DNA of 63,304 bases, filler included, from Collodictyon triciliatum (GCA_043381765.1; 5 parts of 5 records of this genome joined end to end with filler, not necessarily neighbours in it), one strand, 5' to 3'; counted from the first letter of the whole stretch, positions 9,710 through 53,022 are shown. The notes: a model not told the origin generated them from the letters alone. Numbers and translations: made by a program.

Positions 9710-11995
9710 TTACTGAGTCAGCCTGGCCTTCTTCAGGCGGGACGCAACACCCTTTTTCAGGGCAGTGACAAAGCGAAGGATGTTGTTTTTTGAAGCAGGC
9801 AGGACCTCGCTATTGTGCATGCCTTTGTCCCACTCGCGCTGCAGTTTGGCTTCGCTCCAGTTGAGAGCGCGCCCGGCCCGCGGCCCGAGACGGCGCTCAA
9901 AGAACTCGCCCTTTGTGCGGTAGCGGTAGTGATAAGTCTTGAGCAGGCCTTTTGCATCCTGGGCATAGCTGACAGGCTTCTGCCCCAGGTCGCGCTTGAG
10001 CCGGACATAGTGCGGCCCAAAGTTCTGCATCCCGGCGACATAGGCCGGCTGGAAGGTGGACTTTGGGAAGGGCGAGGAGGACTCTGTGACGTTTGTGCAG
10101 ATCTCCACAATCAGCTCGTGCATCTTGCGCCGCTTGTCGCCGCACGGCCCAAACGTGACCCAGTGTGTGTGGATGTAATGCGCCTTGGGGAACTTGTCGC
10201 GGAGGACGGCTCTGACGGTCGGGTATTCCTTGGCCGGGACCAGAAACTCGTCCACGTCGATGAGGCTCATCCACTTGGTGCGGTACCCGAAGCGGTTGAT
10301 GCAGTCTGTAAACGCCTCTGTTTGGGAGTGAAGATGCGGCCAGTATTGGCGCGCAATCAGGAACGGATACGAGCGAATCACCTTCTCCATGACCTCGTCC
10401 GGCTCGCCAGGTGGGTTGTTGTCGTAGAGAATGAAGCGGCGGTAGCCCATGAGAATGTGGAATTCAATCCACTCCACAAGGTTGGCGCCTTCCTTTCGCA
10501 CTATGGCGCATATGGTCATGAAGGTGTTTGAGAGTCTCTTGTCGCGCGGCTCAACCTTGAAAGGGAATGGCGCCGAGAAGATCAACGGGTTGTAGGCCAG
10601 CCGCAGAGTGGTGCTGTTTGTGACCCGGTTGGGCTTTGGGCAGTACGCGAAGGAAACGTCCCCGACAACAGCGGGATATATCTCTGCATCATGGTCTTGG
10701 TCTTCCTCGAGTTCCTGTCCGCGTTTTTTGAGGGCGAACTCCATGACCTGGTGGGTGTCGTCGTCTTTTGCAAGGGAAGAAGGCGGTTGGTGCCCAGAGT
10801 CGGCCCTTTTCGCAGATGGATGCTGGTAGACACAATAGACCTGGTTGCACTTGTTTGGCCTGAGGATGTTTGGTAGGTAGTAGGAAATGACAAGGACCAG
10901 GTCATCGCGCGGATCTTGCAGAACAGAGCGGATCAAGAACGGGCGAGTCTTATCAGCCACAACGTCGTAGTAATGGTAGTAGATCACCTTCTGCCCCAGC
11001 TCGATGCGGGCGCTCCTTTCGATCCAGGAGAAGCCATTGCAGTCGATGCCGTAGTATGTCGGGCACGTCACGATTGTGGAGTTGATGCATGTGGCCGTGG
11101 TCACCTGGTCCAGAATCACGGGATCATTCTGGTGCGTGTTGAACTTGCGGAAGTGGCATTGCAGAGAAGGGAGAGGCAGCTCCTGGTCCCCAGCATCTTT
11201 TGCATCTCGCAGCTTTGTCTGATCCGGAGTGGATTTACACCGGAGATTGCTTGCTAGATGCACCGTGATTACACGCTTCAGGCTGCAATGTGATACGCAT
11301 GTGTTTCTCTGCTCTGTTCCTGTGCGCTGCTGAATCCGTCTCAGCCGCCAGCCGAAATCGTCCTTGCCCAGTCCAGAAAGGGTGCCCTCCCACGGCTGCT
11401 CCTCAAAGGCCAGCTCGGGTGTTGCTGAGGTTCTCGAGATTCTATAGTCCGCGCTGGGATTGTTTATGCCTAGACGATTTACAGGGTCCACAGAGCGGGG
11501 CAATGAGTTGTTTTGAGCGCTTCGGTATTGCGGTGTCTGGGAGACGTGAGACTGGTCGGGAGCATGGTCTCTGTTGTGGTGTGCGTTGTAATTGCCGTTT
11601 TTGGGGTGGTGACGGTGATTATCATGAGGTATGTGTTCGTGTTTTGTTTTTGTTTTGTCTGCGTTGAGGTCGATGTTGTCTTTGATGTTGCTGCCGTCGT
11701 CATTATCATTACCATTACCATTATCATTGTCGTTATCATCGTTATGGTCATGGTTATGGTCGTTATCATCTATGTAGTGGTTATTGATATTGTCTACGTC
11801 GTTGTTGTTGTTGTCGTCGTCATCTTCGGCTTCAATGCCGTCAAGCCAAGATAGACTATTTGGATCTCCTGTGTCTGTTCTAAGTTCAGTTCGGAGTGTT
11901 CGTTCTGTTTGGAAAAAGCTGACTTCCAGCAGGAAAAATGTGATATTGATGACGAGAAGAAGACCAACGGAGCGGAGGCTGGTGCGGCTGGCCAT
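9710..11995 (-). CDS. Glycosyltransferase family 92 / GT2-like (DUF23), type II membrane protein, intronless
   Basis: N-terminal TM (VGLLLVINITFFLL) and D/N/H-rich stem. C-terminal GT92 motifs: MTICAIVRKEGANLVEWIEFHILMGYRRFILYDNN, QTEAFTDCINRF and WMSLIDVDEFL (DxD). First ATG at 11995. Confidence 0.85.
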   Translation of the reverse strand: MASRTSLRSVGLLLVINITFFLLEVSFFQTERTLRTELRTDTGDPNSLSWLDGIEAEDDDDNNNNDVDNINNHYIDDNDHNHDHNDDNDNDNGNGNDNDDGSNIKDNIDLNADKTKTKHEHIPHDNHRHHPKNGNYNAHHNRDHAPDQSHVSQTPQYRSAQNNSLPRSVDPVNRLGINNPSADYRISRTSATPELAFEEQPWEGTLSGLGKDDFGWRLRRIQQRTGTEQRNTCVSHCSLKRVITVHLASNLRCKSTPDQTKLRDAKDAGDQELPLPSLQCHFRKFNTHQNDPVILDQVTTATCINSTIVTCPTYYGIDCNGFSWIERSARIELGQKVIYYHYYDVVADKTRPFLIRSVLQDPRDDLVLVISYYLPNILRPNKCNQVYCVYQHPSAKRADSGHQPPSSLAKDDDTHQVMEFALKKRGQELEEDQDHDAEIYPAVVGDVSFAYCPKPNRVTNSTTLRLAYNPLIFSAPFPFKVEPRDKRLSNTFMTICAIVRKEGANLVEWIEFHILMGYRRFILYDNNPPGEPDEVMEKVIRSYPFLIARQYWPHLHSQTEAFTDCINRFGYRTKWMSLIDVDEFLVPAKEYPTVRAVLRDKFPKAHYIHTHWVTFGPCGDKRRKMHELIVEICTNVTESSSPFPKSTFQPAYVAGMQNFGPHYVRLKRDLGQKPVSYAQDAKGLLKTYHYRYRTKGEFFERRLGPRAGRALNWSEAKLQREWDKGMHNSEVLPASKNNILRFVTALKKGVASRLKKARLTQ

Positions 11996-12063
11996 TGGCA
12001 AAGATGGAATGCGCTTTTCTAGATTTGTTGTATTTTTTCTTTTACGTTTTTTTTACTTTTACT

Positions 12064-13166: not shown

Positions 13167-13266
13167 NNNNNNNNNNNNNNNNNNNNNNNNNNNNNNNNNN
13201 NNNNNNNNNNTTAATTAATTAANNNNNNNNNNNNNNNNNNNNNNNNNNNNNNNNNNNNNNNNNNNN
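13167..13266. other. Artificial contig spacer (N44-TTAATTAATTAA-N44)
   Basis: 100-bp spacer with a six-frame stop linker, identical at four places. Confidence 0.98.
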
Positions 13267-15760: not shown

Positions 15761-15788
15761 GGTAGATACATGGATAAGAAAATTAATA

Positions 15789-15958
15789 AATTCATATGGG
15801 ATGATTGCTTACCCGACGGCTCCATGCTTAAAGAACTGGTCTCTCTCATTTTGCATGTCTCGGAAGTCGATGACAGAAATATGTGAAGGACTCGCTCGTC
15901 GCGAATGACAAGTTCAAGAGATTTTGGTGTTGTGTATCGTCACGGAGCAGGAACCCAC
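15789..15958 (-). pseudogene. Inverted, pseudogenised copy of the DUF4062 exon and donor of the adjacent STAND gene
   Basis: The reverse complement aligns at high identity to 17751-17920, with a CGA>TGA stop (WVPAP*R) and a 1-bp deletion in SSTF. Confidence 0.85.
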
Positions 15959-16602
15959 ATTTGGCTTGTGCCTCATCACACCGTTGAATAAGGGAAAATG
16001 ATGGAAATATGGAGAAATGCCCATTTCTTCTGCTGCCATTTCTATTCCTTCATTAGTAAATACTCAGCTCTGTTCATATGTTTCCGTTCCACCTCTTCCC
16101 TTTTTCTGGTTGTCTTTTTATATAGCTGCGGATGTTTCGGTCAATTAGCTTTGATTAATCGAAATTAGGTGATGGGGCGTCTTGGTTTTGGGATTTGTCT
16201 TGCTGTTTGGCAGGGGCGAATATTACAAATAGAGCACTGGCTAAATTGGACGCGGTGGCAAGACACATAATGTTTGAATAGGATAACATACGTAATACAT
16301 GAGTTAGGTTCACTTAATTGTAAAGCATCTTTAGACCACATACATATATATGAAAACGAATTTAAAGTGTAAATTCCACAAATATTCTCCCAGCTCAATG
16401 ATTGCCTAGATTGGTTGTTTCTGTAAATACACACACAATCACACACACTATGAGCGAGACTGGATAAAGCCTGCACGCTTCCCTGTATTGTTTCGATGAA
16501 AACCGACACTTGTTGCCTAGACTAGAGAACTGTTTTCTCTCTCTTTTTTTGAGTCCTTTCAACCTTTTTCTCTTTCCTTTGGGTAGACCCCCTTTGATCG
16601 CC

Positions 16603-19600
16603 ATGAGCAGCACGCCACGAGACGTTGTGAACATGGAGGAGGTTTTTTTTGGTTACGATGAAACACTATATTAATTGCATGATTTACTTGTATGCAGCCT
16701 TTTCTTTTCTTTTTATAGATCATATAGTTTGATATAACGAATCCTTCAACCAGGGGCTTCTCGAATGGGTCAACTACCAACTCGGCAAGATCGAGATCAG
16801 TGCGAAAAAAATCCGTGATGACATGGAAGACGGCTTCTTTATTGTCTTGTTGCTGGAGCTTATCACGGGAGATCGCCTTCAGTCTCATCATTCACGTTTA
16901 TTTTTGTGATTAGGATTTTCTTTCTTCTCTTTCTCTCTCTCTCTTCCCTCTTTTTCTTCTCTTTCTATTCCTCTTTTTTTGCTGTTTCTTATCATTAGAT
17001 GAAACTGAGACTATTACATGATTCATTCTAGCCATCAACCCATCGAGGAAAAGCCCCTCATAGCAGAGAATCATGGCGCCATCCGCAGCTGGTTTGCAGA
17101 CAAGTCGGATTTTCCCAACGAGGACACTGCAGCAATTTGGAGCTTTAGTTTTAGAAGTAATTCATGCTTATCTTACCATAGCTTTTTGCTAAACAAAGCA
17201 GACAAATAAGCAAACAAAAGGTTTGGAAATATTGGATTCAAAATATATAATGCCTTTCAGAGATCGTCCAGAGAATATTGTGGTATCTCATCACCAAATC
17301 AGTGGGATACAGAGTAAAGCTTAAGGTATTTAAATATTCGCATACTGTTCATCCAATATGTGAAGAATAAATAGCATCGGCCATATAAATAGAAGCACTC
17401 TCTCGGAAGATTCCAAGAAGCCAAGAATCTGTTTGAAAAAGTCAAAGCACCTTTTCCTTTCGAAGGTGATATATTACCCGGATGCAATTTCTGTAAATAT
17501 AATAATTTACAACGATGCTGGTATTTCAATTGCCATGTCGCTCTCTAAAACACCTAAAAATATCAGGACTCGGTTTGGAAGAAAAGGGATCGACAGTTTT
17601 CATTCGCACATGCATCCTACTAGACAAGGTTGCCTTCCATATTTATTTTTGTTTTCATAGATAAGTTTATCTAGATATGGGATATTTATTTATTTTTGTT
17701 GGACAGATGAACACAATTCGAAACGAGCTAAAGGAAAGCCGAATCAAGAAGTGGGTTCCTGCTCCGCGACGATACACAACACCAAAACCTCTTGAACTTA
17801 CCATTCACGACGAGCGAGTCCTTCGCATATTTCTGTCATCGACCTTCCGAGACATGCAAAATGAGAGAGACCAGTTCTTTCAGCATGGAGCTGTCGAGTG
17901 AGTACTCATCCAAAATGAATTTTTTTCAGGTCGGCCATCCCATATAAAGTTTATGTATCGATATATCTAAACATCGTTAAAACCAAAACTTTTGAATACC
18001 ACAGGCTTAAGATTCATGCAAAGACACTGAGCTTCGAGCTTGTCTTCATCGACTTGCGCTGGGGACTCACATCCAAAGATAGCAACGAAGGATGGGTATA
18101 TTTACTTTACAATCTTCTTTTCATCATCATCTTTGTCAACAACCAACATATACCTTTATTCTATTTAGTTGCTTTATTCAATAAATACAATATTGAAAGG
18201 TTGTTATTCGATGCCTGGACTCGATTAAAAAATGCCCCTATTTTGTTTGCTCTCTTGGTGCTCGCTACGGGTGGATTCCCAACCAAAGCTCAACAGAATT
18301 GAATCTAACTGAGAGGTTTGAAAAACTGAAAGAAACCAAACCTAACGCCCACATCAACGAGGTTGGTATTGAATGGAGGTCGGAAACATGCAAGCGCTTT
18401 CCTTTCATCGAACAATTACCTGGACTGAGTGTTACAGAATATGAGGTAAGGTGACTAAAATATCAGAGCCCAGCTCAGTCAGCGTTGAAAAAAAGAAAAG
18501 ACACTGAAAACTACACTTGTTGAAATTTCCGCCACTTTAATAGATCCAATATGCTGCCATGATTTCAAAACCTGCTTGTAGTCGTGTTTTCTTTTATTTA
18601 CGGGACGAGGTTTATGCTGTCGCGCATGCAAGGTCAGAGGAAGAGAGGAAGCTCTACCAATCAGACGGCGACGAGGGTGTATGATTATACGTGATTCTGA
18701 ATATATATTTGTATCTATTATATTATCAAATTACTACTTTGGTTTGATTAATTTGTAAAATTTATCCTGCCTAGCGCCGACGCCAAGAGCTTCTGAAGGA
18801 AAAGGTCAAGGAGAAATATGGGCATTTTGTTTACAAAGAACCTAAAGAATACTCTGACTTGGTGACCCACCACCTGATTTATGCCATGAATCAAGATTTT
18901 TCCAATATAATGGTAAGATCAACGGAATCAAAACACATTATTTGATGACATTGTCAAAAGCGAAGACATGTATCTTGAATCGTAATTTATTTAATCAGGC
19001 AAGAGATCCAGAAGACCAAGCGCATCATCAATTTAAGATGCATCGCTTGGTGGGGTTCGGAGGTCGCAAATCACTCCTGGAAGAAATAAAAGAGAAGGTA
19101 TCTTTTTCATACCATATCTGAAGATTTTATGAAATAAAAAATATTTAAAGAAAATTTTCTGACAAATCAATACCTCTGCAGGCTTTGACCGGGCTAAACA
19201 GCGATGATACAGATATTATCTTGCTGGCCGCAAAGTCCGGTATAGGAAAATCCTCTTTAATGGCCGCGAGTATTCGTAATTTTGAAAGTTTGAAGAGGGA
19301 AAACCTTTGCATCTTTTACCATTTCGTCGGCTGTACAAATGTCAGCAACTATGTGGAAAAGTACTTAATTTAGAACACCATTTCCTTCTAAAATAATTTC
19401 GATGGGATTGTGCTTCTCGAAATTAAATGCCGATTAATACATGTAAGTATTTCGACTCGCTTTTGGAAATTGGTAGCCAATAAAACTCAACTCACTGATA
19501 TTGCTCGCGATTCCATGGACCCAGGTAGTCACCAGCAATTCGCTATATATCTATGTAGTTATCTGACTTCATTTTATTATCAATAGTGCATGAGAAGAAA

Positions 19601-22600
19601 GGATTACATAGTCTTTTCAAATATATTGGCGAGGAAAATCGGTAAATAAATTATTCTCTTTATTTTGTAATTTCGAGAAACAAATAAAAATATATCGCGC
19701 ATTCATTTGATAGGTTTATTGAGTTATTTGAATTTTCACTTTGATATATTTTATTATATTAATTTTTGTTTTAGCAACCGACAATATATTTTCATGATTG
19801 ATGCCATCAATCAAATACTCGCATCCCAAGAAAATCCCGCCCCTTATTTTCTGAGATGGCTTCCCAAAAAAACTCCCATGAACGTCACCCTGATTGTTTC
19901 GACAATTGATACCCATCCGTCTTGCAATGTTTACAAATGATTAAATGAAAGTATAAAAATAATCATGATTTCAGTTCCAAAAATTTCCTTATTCTACCAT
20001 ATTTCTTTTTCACCGATAAAGTTTGATTTTAAAAATCAAAAGGTATTTTAAGAATCCAAGCAGCATTGCTACAAATCAAGATATTTATAATTTTGTTTTA
20101 ACATAGAATGCCGTCGATGCTGGATTGCACGCTATTCCAGTGGCAGCACTGGAACTTGAAGAAATACAAGAAAGCTCCGTCTCTTTCTTGAAAAATTATG
20201 ATAAGTCTTTAAATGAGGGACAACTCAAAATGATTTTGGATGATTATGTCGACACTGGTAAGTTTACGCGGCAAAGAAATATTTATTATTGTATTTCGTT
20301 CTTAAAAATTATCTAAATAAGGTCATCCGCTATATCTGCGACTTGTTCTGGACGAAATCCGAGTTTTTGGTGTTTATGAAAAATTGGACTCGGAACTACA
20401 CGATTTAATTGCAACCGACGGAGTAATTGAACTATACACTTTGATTATTGATCGATGGCGTACCAAGTTCAATATAGGTTGTTTTCATAATTTTTAAACA
20501 TGTATCTTGCCATTACACATTATTCACATATTCACCGATTTTATTCACTCGGCGACAGGTGCCCCGATTGTGGACGTTGGTATGAAAGTTCTCTACATAT
20601 CTCGAATCGGCTTAAGTGAATCTGATTTGGATATGTATATGGAATACATGATCGGAAACACATTTGAACATGTAGAATGGTACCTATTTCATATTTTAAA
20701 TGTTTACATACGCATACATGAAAAGCAAACGCAAATTTTAAACATAGTAACCTCATATATGAATTCAAGGAAAACATTCTTTTTTACTCTTGTTGAATCA
20801 CTGTTTGTGCGAAATGGAAGGTAACTATCACATAATTGAATTTTTTTTATTTATTTTTGTAAAACAAACTCTTTTTAGACGAATAAAGTGCAAGTAATTT
20901 TCCATTTCCTTAAATATATGTACTTTCATCAATTGCTTTTGGAAACGACCAAAAAGTATTACTTTGGGTCCGATGATTTGATTATCTCAGCCCAAAAAGA
21001 TTATGGGACTTGGTTATACGGAGTATATTCAGAACATTTGGACGCTGATGAAGATACCATATCGGAGATATGCTACCAACTTTTAATGGGAAATTGTCTC
21101 GATTTGCTAGTAGAATACCTAAAGAATGAACATGTGAGTCATCTTCTCTTTAGTTTCTCTCTTTTTTTCATTGTTTAAAAAACTAAAACTGTCCAGGTTG
21201 TTTTAGCTATGCTAAATGGTCGGTATCGGTACGAATTTTTCACCTGCTGGAGGGTTATAAACGAAAAGGGAATTGCAGATTATAGGGATGTCTACAGTGC
21301 GCATGTTAAGGTAAAAATCAAATAATGAATATCTTGGTGTCCTTTATTTCAAAAATAGGGGCTACTCTTCGAATCTATTGGTCAAAAATAAATGCACAAA
21401 TAACAGCTAAAATGGATTTTAAAATAGTCGCTGAAAAGAGTAGGGGATGTATTGGTCGACTTCTTCCTTGAATCTTATGAGAACTCGTTTTTGAGCTCTG
21501 TGCTTCGCCAAAAAATGGCAAAGCGGCCACCCGAAAGTTAGATATCTTAAATTCTACTTGAAATATAGATACAATCAGTTTATTAAGCACCAAAATTTTC
21601 ATTGATACTAAAAATCAATGCTCATATTCATGAAATAAGTTTAATTGTGCAGAGTCCGAGGCTACTGACTACCTCATTCTGGGTCGTGTCTACAGGAATA
21701 TGCAGATGTGAGGTTTTCAATCGCAATCTTTTACAAACAGCAATACCCTACATTAATAATACATAAATTGGGGAAAATAGTTGGGACGATTCGTTATATT
21801 TTTTTGAAAAATGTCTTGCGGCCATGATAAAGGACGAAAATAGAGAAAACGACCAATTAGATGCTATAGATGACGAAATCGGATTTATTTACATTAAGAA
21901 GAATAGGTAAGGTTCCAAATTGCAGCTTATTTAATACATTTAATATTATAGAATATGCACATTATTAGCATACTCCATTCGTCCAAAAATCAAATTCAAT
22001 CTAGGCTACAAGATGCTAATGAATATTTTAAGAAGTCACTGGATTTACGAGTGAAAATATATGGAGAGAATGATATCCTTGTGGCACAGTCATATGACAA
22101 TATTGGAGATACTTTTCTGCTTGAAAATGATTTGTTTTTTTGTTGTTGATACTTTCCAATAATAACCCCGATCTAAACAGACCATTGAATACATGTCTTA
22201 TAAAGGTATGCCTGCTTTCATTTAGTTACACACAAGCTCTGTACATATATAAGAAAGCTCAAGAGATTCGTTTCAAGAAAGTTGGGCAGGATGACCCTTT
22301 GGTGGCCACTTCCCTCATAAAAATCGGAGAAGTGCATCTATCGGAACAACAGTTGATTTAATTTCTAAATGAAATATGTGTAAGCATTGATTTAATGCAT
22401 TCGATGCGCTTTTGTATCAAGGTATTCTGATGCCATAAGTTCATTCGAAAAAGCGACTTTGGTTATGGAAAAATCATTCGGGGAAAAGCACCCATATGTT
22501 GGAGATGCCACCAAGTGTATCGCTAGAGTGCTTTTAGCTGAAGGAAAGTATGTGAAATTTGTTAATATTCCAAAGGCAATTATATATTATTAAAAATACT

Positions 22601-25162
22601 GAAGCTTTTTCTTTATAATAAAAGAAAATTCGAAGCTTTGGATTTGCTGAGTAAGTCCTTAAAGATATATATTGAAACGTTGGGACCTAATCATCCAAAA
22701 GTAATTGAAACATACGATATAATTGGAAGCATGAATCATGATTTAAAGAGGTATGCTGTATATTATACAGTGGGAATTGAGAAGGACTGAAAATATTAAA
22801 TTATTTCTAAATTAAATACAAATAGATTTTATCCTAAATACTGTCTATTTTTTTTAGATATTCAGAGGCTCGAGAGGCATTCGAGAAAACTAGATTGATT
22901 ACATTCAGGACTTTGGGAAAAGAACAATCCAACTACGCTACTGCTCTTGAGAACGTTGCTCGCTCAAATTTTGAATTACAAAGGTATTCCTCTCATAAAT
23001 AATTGATGCATTGAAATCAGTTGAGAAGACTATTCAATGAAGTTGTCCGGAAATATAACAAACTCTAATTTACACGGCCCTTTAGTTTTGCGCAGACAGT
23101 TGAATGTTTAAAGGAATCCACTGGTATTCGAAGCAGAACAAAAACTGTTATGATGCTTAATGATTCGAACGAAATAGAGAATATGATTTGGCTCATGAAA
23201 GATAAGAAAGAGTTCAAGTCTGTCATTTTACTCTATCAAAACTTGATAAACCTATTTAAAACGCAACAAGCCACCGATTTCCCTGGGATGTGGAATGCAT
23301 GTCAACAAATGAACGCAATATTCAAGGATAATTACTTGCACAGGGAGGCTGTAGAGTTTTGGGGTGAAATGCAAAGTTGGTTCAAAGATAAATTGAAATG
23401 GTCTCATGATTGGTCATTATTGTCTTGTGAACTTGCATCCTATCACTACAAAAAATTAGGCATGTGTAAAGATGTCGTCGAGCTCACTGGTGTTTTGGAT
23501 TTCATCTGTGTTATTTTCGAGAATCAAGACATAGCAAATCCTTACAGCCGTGAAGAAATCATCAAAGTCCTTTTTGATATCGTCCGCATTTCAAAATCAG
23601 AGCTATCGATGGCAGAATCTGCGTCAAAAGCGGTTACCATTTTGAATTTCATGAAGGTTTCTTTTGAAAAGGTGGACTTTACAGGCATTAGAATTCCAAA
23701 TGCAAATTTGACCAATTCTATAATGAATGGAGCAAACTTTAGTGATGCTGACCTTAGCGGCGTCAATTTTACCAATGCGAGTCTTGATTATTGCATATTT
23801 AATGGAGCGAACATGAATAATACACAATTTGGGTTTTCGAATGGCAGGCTTAAAGGCCATGAAAATCACGTGCTTACGGTTTGCATCGTGCATGGCCCAG
23901 ACGGAAAGTATTGGCTTGCATCTGGTAGTGAGGATGAGACAATTGTCTTGTGGAGTTTGACCACCGAAAGGCCGGTGAGGAGGATAGAGGGCAGCCTTGG
24001 TAACATATTTGCTATTTGTGAGGTACGCGGACCGAACGGTGAGTACTGGATGGCGTCTGGAAGCTCGAGCAAACTTGTTCAGGTGTGGGACGTAGTCTCA
24101 GGAACACAAGTAATGAGACTGGCTGGGCATCGAAGCTACGTCTTTGGATTGTGCTCTTTAGATGGACCCAACGGCGAAAGATGGCTAGCCTCTGCCAGCG
24201 CTGATAAGACCATTCGAATTTGGGATATGAAAACACAGAAGCAAGTGAAGGTTCTGGAGAGGCACACGGATTATGTCCGTAGTGTTTGTAGTGCTCACGG
24301 CCCCAGTGGAGAAAAATGGCTTGTCTCTGGAAGCGAAGACGAGACCGTCATCATTTGGGATTTGACGACATTCGATGCGCTTCGTATCTTGGAAGGGCAT
24401 GCAAACTCAATCAACAGCATTTGCACAATTGATGGTCCTGGAGGTGAGAAGTGGTTGGCGTCGGCAAGTGCAGACAAGACCGTTCGTATCTGGGATTTGG
24501 CTACAGGTGACCATGTAAAGACGATGCAGCGACACACAAACTTTGTTTGGAGTGTTTGCAACGTCCAAGGACCGAACGGAGAAAAATGGTTGGCCTCTGG
24601 AGGATGGGACATGGTCGTGTGCATCTGGGACTTGGCGTCAGGGAATCAGGTGAAAACGCTTGAGGGCCACGATGACGGAGTTTGGACCCTGTGCAGTATC
24701 GATGCGCCGAACAAGGAAGTATGGCTTGCCTCTGGAAGTGGGGATTTCTCAATAAAGCTATGGAATATTTCGTCTGACCGTGATATAAGCGGCACAAAGG
24801 ATCAAGTGGTAGTGTATACCGTAGGACAAAGCCCGCAAGGGAGCCAGCAATGTCGTGAGGAAAATCTGGGTGATGACTTTGAAAAAACTGAGTTTATGCA
24901 GGTTTCATTCCCCAGGATACTTTGTGGTGATTCCGCAAATATAGATGGTGTCAAGGGCTTGAGCGCATACAATAGAAATCTGCTGTATTCGGTCGGTGCA
25001 ATTTCTTTGGAAGAAAGCTTTGTCAAGTTTTGTGAGAAAATCAAGTTCACCAAAGAACAGGCCTTTGAGATGGTCAAATGCTACGAAAACGGATTGGGTG
25101 TGGACAAAAACCTCGAAAAATCCAAGGAGTGGGCCCAAAAAGCAGCCAGTTTTGACCAGTAA
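16603..25162 (+). CDS. Multi-exon NLR-like STAND protein: CH domain - DUF4062 - NACHT/AAA NTPase - TPRs - pentapeptide repeats - 7xWD40 - Sel1
   Basis: Exon 16754-16895 GLLEWVNYQL..DDMEDGFFIVLLLELITG (CH domain). RVLRIFLSSTFRDMQNERD and FIDLRWG (DUF4062, NPHP3/TEP1 type). Walker A AKSGIGKSS, FYHFVG, Walker B YIFMIDAINQ, GHPLYLRLVLDE. Kinesin-light-chain-like TPRs (VAQSYDNIG). A phase-2 splice at 23086 runs in frame into ORF 23150-25162 with pentapeptide, WD40 and Sel1 motifs. Confidence 0.85.
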
Positions 25163-26424: not shown

Positions 26425-26524
26425 NNNNNNNNNNNNNNNNNNNNNNNNNNNNNNNNNNNNNNNNNNNNTTAATTAATTAANNNNNNNNNNNNNNNNNNNN
26501 NNNNNNNNNNNNNNNNNNNNNNNN
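26425..26524. other. Artificial contig spacer
   Basis: N44-TTAATTAATTAA-N44. Confidence 0.98.
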
Positions 26525-26825: not shown

Positions 26826-29702
26826 ATGACCTCTATACTCAGTCTTTCAACCGTCATATGGTTCCTCCGTAAGTATATTGTCTCATGTGATATATCAATA
26901 CATAATTAATATATTTTCCATATAGTTTCCCTGGTTGCACCCCAGGCCAATGCCCTACGTACAGAGGCAGCCATTTTAACCACTATTACCAATCCTGGTT
27001 ATTTTCATTGCCTAGCTTTGACTCCTGACGGTAAAACAATTATCTCTGGGAATCAATACAATTTTATCGGTGTTTGGAACATAACAGATGGGAACTTGAT
27101 TCGAAAGCTATCTGGTCATACAGATTTAGTTGTAAGTTTGGCTGTAACCCCTGATGGATCAAAAATTATCTCTGGAAGCAAAGACAAAACATTAAAAATT
27201 TGGAATGTTGCGGATGGAGCTTTAACGAATTCATTGGGGGGCCACACTGACACTGTGATCGACATTTCATTTACCCCAGACAACTCGAGTTTTGTTTCAG
27301 TTGGGAACGAAGTGAAAGTTTGGGATATTTTAACCCTATCTTTGCTTCAAACTTTCAGAGTGGAATTTGTTCCGATATCAAGCGCCTCCGTTTCTCCCGA
27401 TGGCTTGTATATTCTATTAGGGATAGAAAAGGAGATCCAAGTATGGGACTTCTTAGAAGGCAAATACAATCGAACTCTTGGTCTCCAGAAATACACAGTT
27501 ACAAGTTTGTCTTTCACCCCGGATGGCTCCAGAGTAATTTCTGTAGCATTTAACGAGATTCTTGTTCGAGATTATTTAACTGGAAACTTGGAAAAGACGT
27601 TTAGTGGCCATTCACACGACATTACGAGCTCTTCGGTTACCCCCGATGGATTGAAAGTTATCACTGCTAGCAAGGATGGATCTATCAAATTGTGGAGTGT
27701 AGACGAAGGGGTCTTGATTTATTCTTTAATCGGTCACTCGGACTCTGTGGACTCTATGGTCTTAATTCCCGGAAAAGATGAAATTTTGTCAGGGGGCAGG
27801 GACAATAAAATGTGCATTTGGGATATTGCTACTGGAAGCTTGCTTGGAGCGATAGTCGGACAATATAGTAAATCAGTCTCGGTGAGTAAAACTAACTCAA
27901 ATTTAGTTAGTGGCAATAATGATGGCACTATTCATATTCTAACGGTCCCTGATGGCATTATTTCGACCACTCTAATCGGACACAAGGGTGCTATCAATTG
28001 CGTCATCTACGAATCTAGAGAAGATATCATTATATCTGGAAGTGAAGACAAAACTATACGGATTTGGAGAGATGAAGGGAGAAAATATGTAAAGCTAACA
28101 GAGCACACCGGTTCCATAACAAGTTTACACCTTACGCCGTCTGGAAAGATTGTTTCTAGTAGTGCAGATAAATCGATCATTATATGGAGTCTTGGTGGGG
28201 CATTTATTCGAAAAATAACTGGGCATACAGATTCTGTTAATGCGATAGCTGTGACCAACGACGAGACTAAAATAATGTCTGCCAGCAATGATGGTACGAT
28301 AAAATTGTGGAATTACTCGGACGGCTCCTTAATTCGCTCCATCTCTGGACACGAAGGTGGCGTTTTCTGCATCTTTATCAAAGAGGATGCGAACCAAATC
28401 GTGTCTGGTGGAGCTGATCGTTTGATTAAAGTATGGAGTATTTCTAGCGGTGCTTTAGTATATTCTTTCAGCGGCCACAAGGGAAATGTAATTAGCATCT
28501 ATTCATCTGAAAAGGGAATACTTTATTCTGGAAGCGAGGATGACTCTATTAAAATCTGGAATCTCAAAAACAGGACCTTGGTGGACACATTATCGGGTCA
28601 CGGAGATTATGTGTATGGGCTTGCAGTCAGAGAAGATAAAGACATGCTGTACTCAGTAAGCAAGGATGGGACGAAGATGATTTGGAATCTCAAAGAAGAT
28701 GAATTAGTTCGTGTATTTGGTGGGTTCAATTCCAGTATACTTTGTGCCAAATTCAGTCATGATGGTATGAGTATTATATCGGGAGCAGAAGATATGACCG
28801 TGAAAATTTGGAATGCTCTTGATGGCTCTTTGAAGAGGACACTTTATGGACATACTGATTCTGTATCGGGTGTTGCTGTTCTACCTAAAAGTGGGCAAAT
28901 AGCATCAGTGAGCTATGATAAAACGGTAAAAATATGGAGTTTGCATGATGGCTCTTTGAATCGAACGCTGACCGGGCATCGAGATTCAATTACAGGGTTA
29001 GGTGTTTCTGCTGATGGAACAAAAATAGTGACAGGAAGTGCTGATAGCTCTGCAATATTTTGGAATCTTTCTGGTCGCACTATAGTGAAGTATTGGTGCC
29101 CTCCAGTACTCAGCATCGCCCTTACGCCTGATGGCACGCTAATCATCACGGCAAATAACGACCAAACCCTCAGAATATGGGACATTGAAATGAAAAACGG
29201 AATTTTGACTTTGTTCGATAGCTCCAATATGTTCATTAGTGTTGCCGCTTGTCCTGATGGAACCAGTTTTGTAGCAGGTAGCCAAGAAGGAAATATCGAG
29301 GTCAAGAGATTACCAGATGGAAAAACTGTCAAGAAGATTGCTGCCCACAGTGGCCCAGTCTTGTCTGTGGCAGTATCTCCCGACAATACCCAAATTATTT
29401 CGTCCAGTGAAGATAGAACCACAAAAATTTGGGATTTTAATAGCGGAAAGCTGATTTTTACAACTAAAAATGTATATGAGATGCCCAAGGCAATCTCAAT
29501 CAGCCATGATAGTGCGATGTATTTGTCGGGTGATTATGGAACTCTGAGGATTTGGAAAAGGGTTGAAACTTCTCCATCAGAAGATGGTTCTGGAAAGAAA
29601 TCTTCAAATCTAGCCAAAATCTTGGGAATCGTGTCAGGAATTTTAGTTGGAGTCAGTATAGCCTTTGTGATTCGTAGGATTAAAAACCGGGTTAGGACGT
29701 AA
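26826..29702 (+). CDS. Predicted type I membrane protein with about 20 WD40 repeats, join(26826..26868,26926..29702)
   Basis: Spliced N-terminus MTSILSLSTVIWFLLSLVAPQANA|LRT looks like a signal peptide with an A-N-A cleavage site. It is followed by GH...WD/WN repeats, a C-terminal hydrophobic helix ILGIVSGILVGVSIAFVI and a basic tail RRIKNRVRT. Confidence 0.85.
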
Positions 29703-31374: not shown

Positions 31375-31779
31375 GATTACCCGCGTGAACTAGACAAATG
31401 CGGAAGCGATAACCCTTTCCAATAATGGTATGTATGTACCGTCTTACTTTCGCCCGACCCAGGCTGATCCCCGTTTGCTGTTGATGTGGCAGCTGGCCAA
31501 TCCGTCTCGCCCCTCCATCAGCCTACATAATAGTCACTTTCCTCTTCGCTGTCGTAATATTCTACTATTCACACTTTCATTTACTGGCACTTTGCATTTC
31601 TTTTTTCTTTTCTTTTTCTTTTTCTTTTTTCTTTTTCTTTTTCTTTTTCTTTTTCTTTTTCTTTTTCTTTTTCTTTATGTTTATGTTTATGTTTATGGTT
31701 ATGTTTATGTTGTAATTTATTTTGCTTCTTGAAAGCAACCTCTGAAGCACGCACAGCAAGAACCACAGGACGCGAGGCC

Positions 31780-33371
31780 ATGACCGAGAACCAGAATTCG
31801 GCGGTCATAGCCGGAGGGGGTCTCTTTGCAAACGGGTCTAGACACGGTCAGGCCTCTGGACAGCAGGCGGAGATCTCTGTGTTTGGCGGGCTGGGGAATC
31901 TGTCCAACAGCAGCGCTGCAATGCTCTTCCCACCAGAGGAGATGGAAAAGACGATCACATACGAAGAGAAGTCCTACCAATTGCAGGACTACAGAGGCTT
32001 CCGCTTGATTGCCGAGGGCGGCTTTGGGTTCATCTACCACGCGCCCAACGAGACGTTTGTCATCAAGAAATCAAAGAAACCGCTTCGGCCCGATCTGCTG
32101 GCGGCCATGCAGAGGCTCTCTGTGGGGCAGTTGAATGATCCAAACCCGCAGGAGTGTGTGATTGAGTTGGAGATCTTCAAGAAAGCCAAAAGCGCTGATA
32201 TCATCAATTTTCTTGGCCATTTCATCCACCAAGGCTACGTGTGCTTTCTCCTCGAGTATGCAAACCAACAAAGTCTTACAAAGTATGTGAAGGAAAACCC
32301 TGAAAACCTCCATATGGGTATGATACTCGACCTTTCCTGGGGCTGTGCAAAAGGTCTTGCGTACATCCACAGCTTGGGCTATGAACATCGAGATATCAAG
32401 TCGGATAATTACCTTGTTTCTTCCAATATTCCGAAACTCACAGACTTTGGTCTTTCACGAAGGGAAGTAACAAACTCAGATTCATCATCCGCTGTTTCAT
32501 CCATAGTCCAGGTTGCGGGTGACTTCCGTTGGTTCGGGCCAGAAACATGCAAAGAATTCTTACAGTCCAAGATGACTGATGTCTTTGCACTTGGACTAAT
32601 ATTCTGGTTTCTGTTGAAGAGGGAGGTGCCGTTCGATGGCCAGATAGATAGATATGTTCTTAAATTCTACAACAATGACAAACGGCTTCAGATCCCCGCT
32701 GTGGCTGAGCCTTACAATCTTCTAATCCAGGCCTGTTGGAGGGAAACACCCGAAACGAGACCAAGAGCAGAAGCGATTGTAGCAGCGTTGTCTAGGTGGC
32801 GCACACATTATCAGACTACCAGGAGCATTGAGAATGTCTCTGTCGCAGAGTTGGCTGGAGAGGTTATTGGTGAAGATGACAGCCAAATGGATCCCTCATT
32901 CCGAACCCTCCTGATTGAGTCACATGTGAGTTTCAGGGTTATCAGTGCAATTTCTCGACAGAACATCACAAAGCAGGGCCTCCGTAATATGAGCATGGAT
33001 GCATTGAGGGCTGTTGTTGAAAGTAATGAGGTGGAATTATTGAACCTTGTCAACGCCCAAAAGAGATTAAACTGGAGCTCCCTAGACGACCAAGATGTGA
33101 GTATTTGTTAATTATCCCTTTTAACATTTACATTTTGGAAAGTGTAGTCGTGCACTTGTTTTTATATGAGCAGCTATTGCTTTCTTTTTTTTCTTTTTCT
33201 TTTTCTTGCCAAATTAAAATTTGAATGAAACCGATATAGTCACTCTTGTCCATTAAAAATAATGAAACATAATCTCCCATTCATCTATTTAATCGAAGTG
33301 GTTTGGAAACATGACTAATTTTATTTTACATCCCCACATCCTTACACTTTTTTATGGTTTCCTTTCTTTTC

Positions 33372-33434
<63 letters not shown>

Positions 33435-35332
33435 TTATGATGAAAATTAAATAGTCCTTACATGCGACGTCCTTAAGCGTGAGACAAAGCTCTGAATCCA
33501 ATGATGGAGACGCATATTATGCTGAAGCTCTTTCGTGTATGAGGTACGGAAATGCCGCTCAAATGACAAACTACCTTCGCTGTGCTTCATTCGAGGGGCA
33601 CCAAAGATCAAAGTACCTGCTCGCGAGATGTTTGATCGAAGGCATAGGAACTGACCCTGATTATCAAAAAGCCAAAGAACTTCTGGAAGAGGTTCTAGAC
33701 TCCAACTCCCAGGATAAGCGATACGAATCATTATTACAATCGGGCTTAGAGTTTATCAACTCGAACAAAAGAATAGACATGCAGTCAAGTGGTAGACACT
33801 TTAATGAACACGAGCCTCCAATGATAGCAGCAGAAGCGGGTTTGTTATACGGACATGTTGCTTACCGTGAGTTTAGTGCATTTGCAATAGCTTTGATGCT
33901 CCTCTATGAAAAGCATCCAACACTTGCACTGTGGCCTCGCAAGCGTGAAGTTGCTGAGGATTATATGCACTTAATTCGCCAATATGAAGGCAGAGTACAC
34001 TATAGAACTCTGGACCGAATGTTACTTCTTGGTCAAAGTTATGTGGGTTTTCTTGAAATCGTGTCCATGATTTACGCGCATCGCCTTATTGGCTTGGAAA
34101 CTTACAGAGATTATAATAGCAAACATCATTTCTATGATGCTGAAGTTAACCCACCTCCAGAAACGCTGGTGAATACAGCGTGTGTCCAGATTGCAGACCA
34201 GGCGGCCTTGGATAGGTTGGATAATCAAGCTGCATTTTACTTTTCAGAATTATTGTCCCGCCTTGGAAGAGGCTCAGCTATGATTCAGCTGGGGCAGTGT
34301 TTTGAAAATGGGTTATATGACAGACAGACTTTAGCAGAGGGAGAAAAGCTGAAGAGAGCAGAAAAATGGTACCGGCAAGCTGCGATGTATGGTCGCCCAG
34401 ATGCATTTTATCGCGTTGCCGTGTGCCTACGAAAGAGTGGCTATGGAGAGGAGAAGAGATTCCTAATCGCAAACTTTGATTCACACGCAGCTAACCTTGG
34501 GTGTAATACAGCGCAATCAAATATTGCTAGCTACCAATTGGAGGCTGCACGAACGCCCGAGAATCGGTACCAGGCATACATCCTTCATCTCCACGCTGCA
34601 CTGAGGGGCAATGCAGAGAGTCAGTATGCCATCGGTGAAATGGCGCTGGCCATTTCCGTGGTTTCATTACAACGAGCTGATTTCTGGCGTTTTCATGGTC
34701 TACGCTGGCTCAATCAGGCCGCTGCAGATTGCCGACATCCTAAAGCTGCATGGACACTGGCTCTTTATTATCTCAATCTAGTCGCCACGTCGAGAGACTC
34801 TGAGAATTATAAGGATTTAAATGCAGCCCTGGAATACCTTGAACTTGTTTGTCAGTCGTTATCCAGCGGCCGCGGTCAATTTGATAGTGGAATAGTGTAC
34901 TACTATATCGGTATATGTCACGCAAAGCTCTCGAAAGTCCCAGACGCCCGTATTGCTGTCCATGAGCACCTAAAGAACGCTTGTTATTATTTCAAAGAAG
35001 CCTATACGAATCATCGAAATCTGAGTGCGGGATACGAGCTGGCCTTTTTCTACAAAAGCGGTATTGTGGTTGGACAGAACTACGATCATTATTTTCATAT
35101 TATGAAGTATCTTGCCGACCAGAACCATGCTTATGCCTGCTACCACTACGCGCTTGACGTCATGGGACTTGATAATGCGGAAGGACTGCGGTACCTCCGT
35201 GTTGCCGCTGAGAAAGGTGTCCGTGAAGCCATCAGGGATTACGCCAACTGTCTGATATTCTACAGCGGTTACATTCCAGCTGATTATGTCTCATGGTGGG
35301 TTGATAAAGCCAGGTCAATGGGCTTATTCTAA
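31780..35332 (+). CDS. TKL-like protein kinase fused to Sel1-like repeats, join(31780..33096,33455..35332)
   Basis: Kinase motifs AEGGFG, VIKK, HRDIKSDN, DFG, RWFGPE, DVFALG. Phase-0 donor GAT|GTGAGT and acceptor AATAG|TCC put ORF 33479-35332 in frame. That ORF has Sel1 motifs (SKYLLARCLIEGIGTDPDYQKAKELL; AMIQLGQCFENG; AEKWYRQAA). Confidence 0.8.
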
Positions 35333-39682: not shown

Positions 39683-39782
39683 NNNNNNNNNNNNNNNNNN
39701 NNNNNNNNNNNNNNNNNNNNNNNNNNTTAATTAATTAANNNNNNNNNNNNNNNNNNNNNNNNNNNNNNNNNNNNNNNNNNNN
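39683..39782. other. Artificial contig spacer
   Basis: N44-TTAATTAATTAA-N44. Confidence 0.98.
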
Positions 39783-52922: not shown

Positions 52923-53022
52923 NNNNNNNNNNNNNNNNNNNNNNNNNNNNNNNNNNNNNNNNNNNNTTAATTAATTAANNNNNNNNNNNNNNNNNNNNNN
53001 NNNNNNNNNNNNNNNNNNNNNN
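52923..53022. other. Artificial contig spacer
   Basis: N44-TTAATTAATTAA-N44. Confidence 0.98.

Follow-up and report, generated by a model that had tools for sequence, protein, structure and literature searches.

Gene structure at the locus

The window analysed here is a 63,304-nt stretch of Collodictyon triciliatum DNA (GCA_043381765.1), intron-rich and eukaryotic in character, with AT-rich introns. Judged by its sequence and its relatives, positions 16603–25162 on the plus strand are a single gene, and that gene is real and well supported. Its predicted protein runs from a calponin-homology (CH) domain through a linker, a TIR-like domain (DUF4062/TeTIR), a NACHT-type P-loop NTPase, TPR units and a helical region to pentapeptide repeats, seven WD40 blades and a Sel1-like tail. 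The closest guide to it is P0081, a transcript open reading frame (ORF) of Diphylleia rotans. The parts of the focal gene are listed below.

16603..25162, plus strand: focal gene, 31 exons, about 1,897 residues in one open frame
16603..16641, plus strand: exon 1, 13 codons with the start codon; donor score 5.8
16754..17325 (16754–16905, 17032–17156, 17261–17325), plus strand: CH domain, exons 2–4, from Pfam, PDB matches and the P0081 alignment
17393..17628 (17393–17465, 17567–17628), plus strand: two linker exons between CH and the TIR-like domain, located with P0081 as tblastn query
17707..18912, plus strand: DUF4062/TeTIR (TIR-like NADase) domain, exons 7–11, from Pfam and alignment with the TEP1 TIR chain 11gz_A
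18999..21536, plus strand: NACHT/NPHP3_N-type STAND P-loop NTPase with a helical/winged-helix region, exons 12–23, from Pfam and collinearity
20821..20913, plus strand: intron 20, whose homologous acceptor reads AA (20912–20913), not AG
21653..23085, plus strand: TPR array, exon 24 and six one-repeat exons, from the exon table and Pfam
23086..25162, plus strand: last exon, 692 codons (2,077 nt), with the TPR end, helical region, pentapeptide repeats, WD40, linker and tail
About 23663–23833, plus strand: pentapeptide repeats, Pfam E 3.6e-13
About 23843–24766, plus strand: seven-blade WD40 propeller, Pfam E 1.4e-49, blades seen in the sequence and in the model
24776–24919, plus strand: disordered linker, last exon
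24920–25159, plus strand: tail with one Sel1-like hairpin (25079–25150), Sel1 at 28.1 bits (cut-off 30.7), E 2.8e-6

The start codon is the ATG at 16603 and the stop codon lies at 25160–25162. Introns measure 62–178 nt by the exon coordinates, and 29 of the 30 are bounded by GT and AG, the exception being intron 20. We built the model by tblastn with the D. rotans sequences P0080 and then P0081 as exon guides. Per-exon Pfam scans of the window gave the first domain evidence, and splice sites were scored with a matrix from 23 introns of the focal gene. The splice-path search also returned an open GT-AG path that bypasses the CH frames. An unbroken frame is thus no proof by itself, and homology carries the argument.

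The spliced model matches P0081 in one BLASTP segment with 784 identities over 1,768 columns (44%) and 14 gaps. It joins model residues 16–1780 to P0081 residues 191–1947 and the tail aligns too. By sequence comparison the match is far above chance. P0098, another D. rotans ORF, aligns at 37% over 1,848 columns from model residue 1 onward, and the exon 1 peptide pairs with an internal Met-Ser-Ser stretch at its residue 116. Because a single P0081 ORF spans the model, the CH exons and the last exon share one message in the relative.

A first-pass annotation had read CH, DUF4062, P-loop, TPR, pentapeptide, seven WD40 and Sel1 in one frame between this same start and stop. Each of these domains is present in the 1,897-residue frame and in the P0081 alignment. 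It had also considered that the CH exons or the 23086–25162 exon might belong to separate genes, which the single D. rotans message contradicts. Its observation is confirmed. Its interpretation is partly supported: the single STAND-type gene and the lineage-limited family hold, while the cytoskeletal link and the immune or guarding role are putative.

Two other splicing candidates were rejected. Read as exon, the stretch from 19392 carries two in-frame stops within the NACHT part, and the acceptor at 19447 makes a normal 87-nt intron with a better match to the homologues. A direct splice from 17325 to 17707, with a 381-nt intron, was replaced by the two linker exons. An Rfam scan of the window gave no match.

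CH domain and linker

Exon 2 matches the Pfam CH model at E 0.002–0.004 and 17.9–18.7 bits, below the cut-off of 26 because the domain is spread over three exons. Against the PDB at E ≤ 10, all 31 of its 31 matches are CH-domain proteins, with the CH1 of alpha-actinin the best (E 0.0017). Exons 2–4 align with the CH domain of P0081, whose residues 1–545 score 45.5 bits for CH (cut-off 26) and 43.4 bits for DUF4062 (cut-off 24.7). The acceptor at 16754 is weak, with a score of 0.7. The CH exon was first placed at 16754–16895; its end is more likely at 16905.

In sequence, exon 2 comes nearest to the CH1 domains of alpha-actinin, plectin and spectrin and to the CH of parvin, at low identity. The setting differs, as a tandem CH1-CH2 actin-binding domain was not found here. 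The focal gene and its paralogue in the window, gene B (below), have one CH domain each, with no tandem CH1-CH2 found; Pfam counts two CH stretches in P0081.

The order of CH before DUF4062 was right from the start, while the two linker exons between them were missing from the first account. Their phases fit at both sides and their sequence is conserved with P0081 and gene B. Exon 7 opens with an ATG straight after its acceptor (17707), and this Met is kept in neither P0081 nor P0098. A CH-less isoform from an internal start there is conceivable.

TIR-like domain

The DUF4062 model of Pfam matches two exons (E 3e-6 and 3.4e-4), one of which passes the cut-off with 27.8 bits against 24.7. For CH the profile match above cut-off is that of P0081, and for DUF4062 there is one in the window itself. 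The Walker A exon follows within about 130 codons downstream of DUF4062.

Two preprints give the TIR-like nature of DUF4062 an experimental basis, with TEP1 shown to be an NADase (10.64898/2026.05.01.722283, 10.64898/2026.09.21.753143). The TIR-like fold proposed for DUF4062 on the first look is in line with this. Two focal exons align to the TEP1 TIR crystal chain 11gz_A with one shared numbering offset. The offset reproduces seven TEP1 residue names, F902, S905, R908, R914, C959, R976 and E1008 (10.64898/2026.09.21.753143), and their equivalents are conserved in the focal protein in 7 of 7 cases.

The RWG loop (R942, W943) is also kept, by a hand count on the translation, 28 residues after the R914 equivalent and 17 before that of C959. 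Its 30-residue exon alone gave no TEP1 match in the PDB. In all, the focal protein keeps 9 of the 9 human TEP1 residues that were examined for their part in NADase activity, with the RWG pair placed by its spacing. NAD(P)+ hydrolysis by the focal protein is plausible from these residues, not assured. At the F902 and R908 positions gene B has Tyr and Gln.

NTPase region and intron 20

Walker A lies in exon 19182–19360 and Walker B in exon 19775–19928. The Walker A exon matches NPHP3_N in Pfam at E 1.2e-3, plus AAA_16, nSTAND1 and NB-ARC weakly. The region is collinear with P0080, P0081 and P0088, of which the paralogue P0088 scores 29.3 bits for NPHP3_N against a cut-off of 24.8.

The one blemish of the model is intron 20. 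P0081 and gene B continue without a break from exon 20 to exon 21, whose start is conserved, and gene B has AG at the base homologous to the focal acceptor. The best canonical sites, 20821/20878, break the frame and lead to a stop at residue 793. The sole canonical in-frame rescue, 20807/20878, replaces five conserved residues with twelve others. With this AA, the focal copy may be wrongly spliced, in decay or wrongly sequenced.

The transcript ORF of D. rotans P0085 ends on the very residues with which focal exon 20 closes. This points to an intron whose position is conserved and which that isoform retains.

C-terminal repeats

Five of the six one-repeat TPR exons measure 126 nt and one 129 nt, and every one is entered in phase 2. 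TPR_12 is weak on one window exon, while the homologous array of P0081 reaches E 3.5e-40. The last exon shares this phase of entry, and the TPR helix pattern carries on into it.

An AlphaFold2 model of the last exon, from a six-sequence alignment, has a mean predicted local distance difference test score of 78.3, with 80–97 in the propeller blocks. It shows the helical region, a pentapeptide-type strand ladder, a seven-blade propeller, disordered residues 570–617 and a four-helix tail. Tandem Repeats Finder found no DNA-level repeats over the WD40 region. Fungal NWD-type receptors are marked by repeat homogenisation, of which the blades, not being DNA-level tandem copies, give no sign. Each of the seven blades (23843–24766) carries a short Gly-Pro-x-Gly-Glu-x-Trp insert, present in P0081 too.

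The sensor cassette of helical region, pentapeptide repeats, WD40 and tail aligns with the NACHT-pentapeptide-WD40 proteins P0070 (E 2e-40) and P0057 (E 2e-28). Being common to such proteins, it is a recurrent STAND sensor unit, here added to a TPR array. When the beginning of the last exon served as query, bacterial pentapeptide proteins dominated the matches.

Family in the window and in Diphylleia rotans

The window holds two copies of the family and one fragment. The other two elements are as follows.

47139 to about 40180, minus strand: gene B, a second CH-TeTIR-NACHT-TPR paralogue, from tblastn and per-exon Pfam
15785..15967, minus strand: inverted pseudo-exon fragment from focal exon 7 with 28 nt of its intron, from an inverted repeat

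The tblastn segments of gene B (40.2–47.1 kb) cover model residues 14–1158 in query order, 15 of them at E ≤ 1e-3. They contain the CH domain, the linker, the TIR-like domain, the NTPase and at least 4 TPR exons, and the E-values of the per-exon Pfam scan are 3.2e-4 for CH, 8.4e-5 for DUF4062 and 1.9e-4 for NPHP3_N. Same-length counterparts with AG and GT at homologous positions exist for 14 of the 31 focal exons; five have no segment and the rest are ambiguous. No pentapeptide or WD40 part was found in gene B, whose 3′ end enters a microsatellite and an N mask.

The fragment is one arm of an inverted repeat of about 184 bp (15785–15967 and 17742–17925, 89–90% complementary). Between it and the focal start codon downstream are 636 bp. 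Its translation meets an in-frame stop, and a one-base overlap of its two segments indicates a frameshift.

In D. rotans (EukProt EP00002, unannotated), P0081 is a complete Trinity ORF of 2,619 residues with two isoforms. A word-based search with the DUF4062 exon gave one relative, P0080. HMMER with exon 18200–18445 against 1.84 billion representatives gave 14 proteins at E ≤ 0.001, nine of them long: six D. rotans transcript ORFs, one insect hemicentin-like protein and two other records. Altogether the D. rotans transcripts include two CH-bearing members, P0081 and P0098, and five CH-less paralogues. The CH-less P0088 and P0085 begin with Met-Gly-Cys-Gly-Ser-Ser, a possible signal for N-terminal lipidation, and this hints that the paralogues differ in cellular address.

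The tree was made from the TIR-like and NTPase region of 18 rows, leaving out P0093, P0100, P0112, P0118, P0158 and P0163 of a 23-row quick tree; the row of gene B is a projection onto focal coordinates (558 of 601 positions). The four CH-bearing sequences form one clade (100/99), in which P0098 and then P0081 branch before the two window genes as sisters (99/96). This clade is nested in another (100/100) of D. rotans and window sequences only. The first-pass annotation had proposed a family in a microbial eukaryote; the one seen is small, lineage-limited and multi-copy, with seven D. rotans paralogues, and not a conserved single-copy housekeeping gene.

P0081 and P0098 share with the focal gene the full order of CH, linker, TeTIR, NACHT, TPR, pentapeptide, WD40 and Sel1-like tail, and P0081 is 60% identical to it over the TeTIR-NACHT region. 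They differ by more WD40 blades, with 14 WD40 stretches counted by Pfam in P0081, and by longer N-terminal ORF extensions that found no counterpart in the window.

With the CH-to-TIR part of P0081 as query, a search over proteins of 1,440–4,584 residues gave 99 matches. The CH part was covered in 2 of the 99, P0081 and P0098, and the next-best coverage was 53%. The word calponin is absent from the main text of 10.64898/2026.05.01.722283 and 10.64898/2026.09.21.753143, whose supplementary architecture figures may list such forms. A full-text literature search for CH with NACHT or Diphylleia gave nothing relevant. The layout with a CH front and a composite sensor is known so far only from the window and the D. 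rotans transcripts.

Comparison with known systems

The focal gene, as judged from its sequence, is a member of the TeTIR/DUF4062-NACHT STAND family (TEP1, NWD1/2, TTC41, NPHP3) and not an orthologue of TEP1 or NPHP3. Three features of this family are seen: DUF4062 directly upstream of the NTPase, the catalytic Glu and RWG loop, and C-terminal WD40 and TPR. The STAND layout of NPHP3/TEP1/NWD type assigned at first sight is upheld. The label NLR-like holds in the broad STAND sense and not in the strict one, which requires a NACHT or NB-ARC with leucine-rich repeats (LRR). The focal sensor is made of TPR, pentapeptide and WD40 instead, and the Pfam scans of the exons gave no LRR family.

Human TEP1, a vault component and active NADase with the order TROVE-VWA-TeTIR-NACHT-WD40, resembles the focal protein in its TIR-like domain directly upstream of the NACHT-type NTPase, its C-terminal WD40 part and its N-terminal extension before the TIR-like domain. 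The two share the nine activity-linked residues, with identical spacing between the F902 and C959 equivalents, but the focal protein has a 28-residue insert between those of R976 and E1008. Its extension is CH, not TROVE/VWA; in residues 1–545 of P0081, Pfam gave only CH, DUF4062 and a weak NPHP3, with no TROVE or VWA. Its NTPase is also separated from the propeller by a TPR array and pentapeptide repeats, and the TEP1-like rows fall in the other half of the tree.

NPHP3 and TTC41 (TeTIR-NACHT-TPR) share the NPHP3_N-type P-loop and the 42-residue TPR units of TPR_12/TPR_NPHP3 type. Both are without the CH, pentapeptide and WD40 parts, all present in the focal protein. In the tree the focal gene stands outside the rows named nephrocystin-3. 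The N-terminus of NPHP3 is lipidated, whereas the focal one starts with Met-Ser-Ser and goes on to CH. The catalytic Glu, present in the focal protein, is absent in human NPHP3 (10.64898/2026.09.21.753143).

The NACHT-pentapeptide-WD40 proteins (P0070, which is KI688_004080 of Linnemannia hyalina, and P0057) are alike in the helical lead-in, pentapeptide, WD40 and C-terminal motif, with tail columns invariant in 6 of 6 aligned sequences. They differ by having no DUF4062 or CH among the Pfam matches listed and no TPR array before the cassette. Plant TNLs and the bacterial DUF4062 system Swarozyc likewise couple a TIR-type NADase to an oligomerising or sensing module, according to the preprints. 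The NTPase of the TNLs is of the NB-ARC clade and Swarozyc has none; their sensors are other ones and CH is in neither.

Proposed mechanism and its alternatives

By analogy, we read the protein as a ligand-gated, oligomerising TeTIR-NACHT STAND switch with NAD(P)+ hydrolysis as its output and an address given by CH, at a probability of about 0.6. Following APAF-1, plant TNLs and TEP1, the C-terminal repeats would hold the NTPase closed and bind the ligand. Ligand binding would then lead to nucleotide exchange and oligomerisation, and this would bring the TIR-like domains together for NAD(P)+ hydrolysis. The N-terminal CH would be the module that addresses or recruits the switch to structures of actin or microtubules. 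It would parallel the TROVE/VWA pair before the same domain in TEP1, linked with the vault location. The biological role may be defence, cell death or cytoskeletal or ciliary signalling.

Several points weigh against this switch. The splicing of the focal gene rests on homology, and without a canonical acceptor of intron 20 this copy may not make the full protein. The per-exon scores of CH, NPHP3_N and one of the two DUF4062 matches are below the curated cut-offs in the window. From a lone CH domain, binding to actin or microtubules does not follow. Conserved residues do not guarantee activity either, as full-length human NWD1, NWD2 and NPHP3 are inactive in vitro (10.64898/2026.05.01.722283), the TeTIR of NWD2 is barely active and three prokaryotic homologues are inactive (10.64898/2026.09.21.753143).

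These last results also serve the view that the protein is a non-enzymatic scaffold of NPHP3/NWD1 type for a cytoskeletal or ciliary compartment of the flagellate, in which the TIR-like domain is an interaction surface and the repeats are docking platforms. The best Pfam names for the family's NTPase and TPR array are NPHP3_N and TPR_NPHP3, CH is typical of cytoskeletal proteins, and the Met-Gly-Cys-Gly start of P0088 and P0085 may be a lipidation signal like that of NPHP3. For the human proteins, little or no NADase activity is given for NPHP3, NWD1 and NWD2 (10.64898/2026.05.01.722283, 10.64898/2026.09.21.753143). However, the focal protein keeps the catalytic Glu that human NPHP3 lacks and eight further activity-linked residues, and the clade of D. 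rotans and window sequences stands apart from the nephrocystin-3 rows. A scaffold is possible, though we consider it unlikely.

The focal copy might instead be a recently disabled or decaying paralogue, mis-spliced by the change of AG to AA at intron 20, with the function carried by gene B or other copies. The AG of gene B at the homologous base and the early stop from the best canonical pair agree with this, and the pseudo-exon fragment with its stop and frameshift shows duplication and decay at the locus. Yet the remaining 29 introns and about 1,900 codons are intact, an in-frame canonical rescue exists and the AA may be a single-base assembly error. Decay of this copy is therefore rather improbable.

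No higher do we place the specific reading of the first-pass annotation, an innate immune or non-self receptor with the cytoskeleton in its guard; CH would be bait or tether and NAD+ depletion an abortive response. The architecture parallels plant TNLs and Swarozyc (10.64898/2026.05.01.722283), the sensor is a composite of differing repeat types, and the family, limited to one lineage, has several copies, a local duplication and a gene fragment. Such a guard fits poorly with WD40 blades that show no DNA-level tandem similarity, with a family of only 2 copies in the window and 7 in the D. rotans transcriptome, and with neighbour genes (a WD40 ORF, a kinase and a glycosyltransferase family 92 enzyme) that carry no defence signal.

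That two or three adjacent genes (CH; DUF4062-NACHT-TPR; pentapeptide-WD40) were joined by hand is close to refuted: ORF-preserving GT-AG paths do arise by chance in AT-rich sequence, exon 7 does open with ATG, P0080 is without CH and WD40 and the last exon is long, intron-free and higher in G+C, but P0081 and P0098 are single complete transcript ORFs in which all parts follow each other as in the focal gene, conservation extends to the two linker exons and to the phase-2 entry of the last exon, and gene B repeats the CH-to-TPR arrangement exon by exon.

Returning to the proposed switch, DUF4062/TeTIR was shown to be a TIR-like NADase in 2026, with human TEP1 as the active example, and the question is what these proteins sense and at which place in the cell. 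In this lineage nature provides a variant whose catalytically complete domain stands behind CH and ahead of a composite TPR-pentapeptide-WD40 sensor, next to sister paralogues with other N-termini. It makes testable the idea that the N-terminal extension sets the cellular address of an NADase switch. It also extends the TIR-type STAND architectures to the CRuMs branch of eukaryotes.

A wider and distinctly speculative generalisation, which we would not bet on, is that TeTIR-NACHT switches are general NADase-armed monitors with an interchangeable N-terminal address, the CH form sensing damage or subversion of actin or microtubules and depleting NAD(P)+ locally. If so, the switch would be sent to the vault by TROVE/VWA, to the membrane or cilium by a lipid anchor and to the cytoskeleton by CH. 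The focal gene would then provide a deep-branching protist with a checkpoint or guard for the integrity of its cytoskeleton.

Surrounding window

Directly downstream of the focal gene, 26910–29702 on the plus strand is an intron-free ORF of 930 residues, almost all WD40 (13 Pfam stretches), with a hydrophobic end. A protein-kinase ORF lies at 31558–33111 (plus) and, 344 bp on, a 625-residue helical-repeat ORF at 33455–35332 (plus), which gave no Pfam match at E ≤ 0.001. These last two may be one gene. On the minus strand, 9710–12052 is an intron-free ORF of 780 residues with a glycosyltransferase family 92 domain, in 51–56% G+C against the 30–40% usual in the window.

Runs of N, 44 bases each, come in four pairs about 13,258 bases apart, at 13167–13266, 26425–26524, 39683–39782 and 52923–53022. 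With spacing this even, they look more like masked stretches than like gaps in the assembly.

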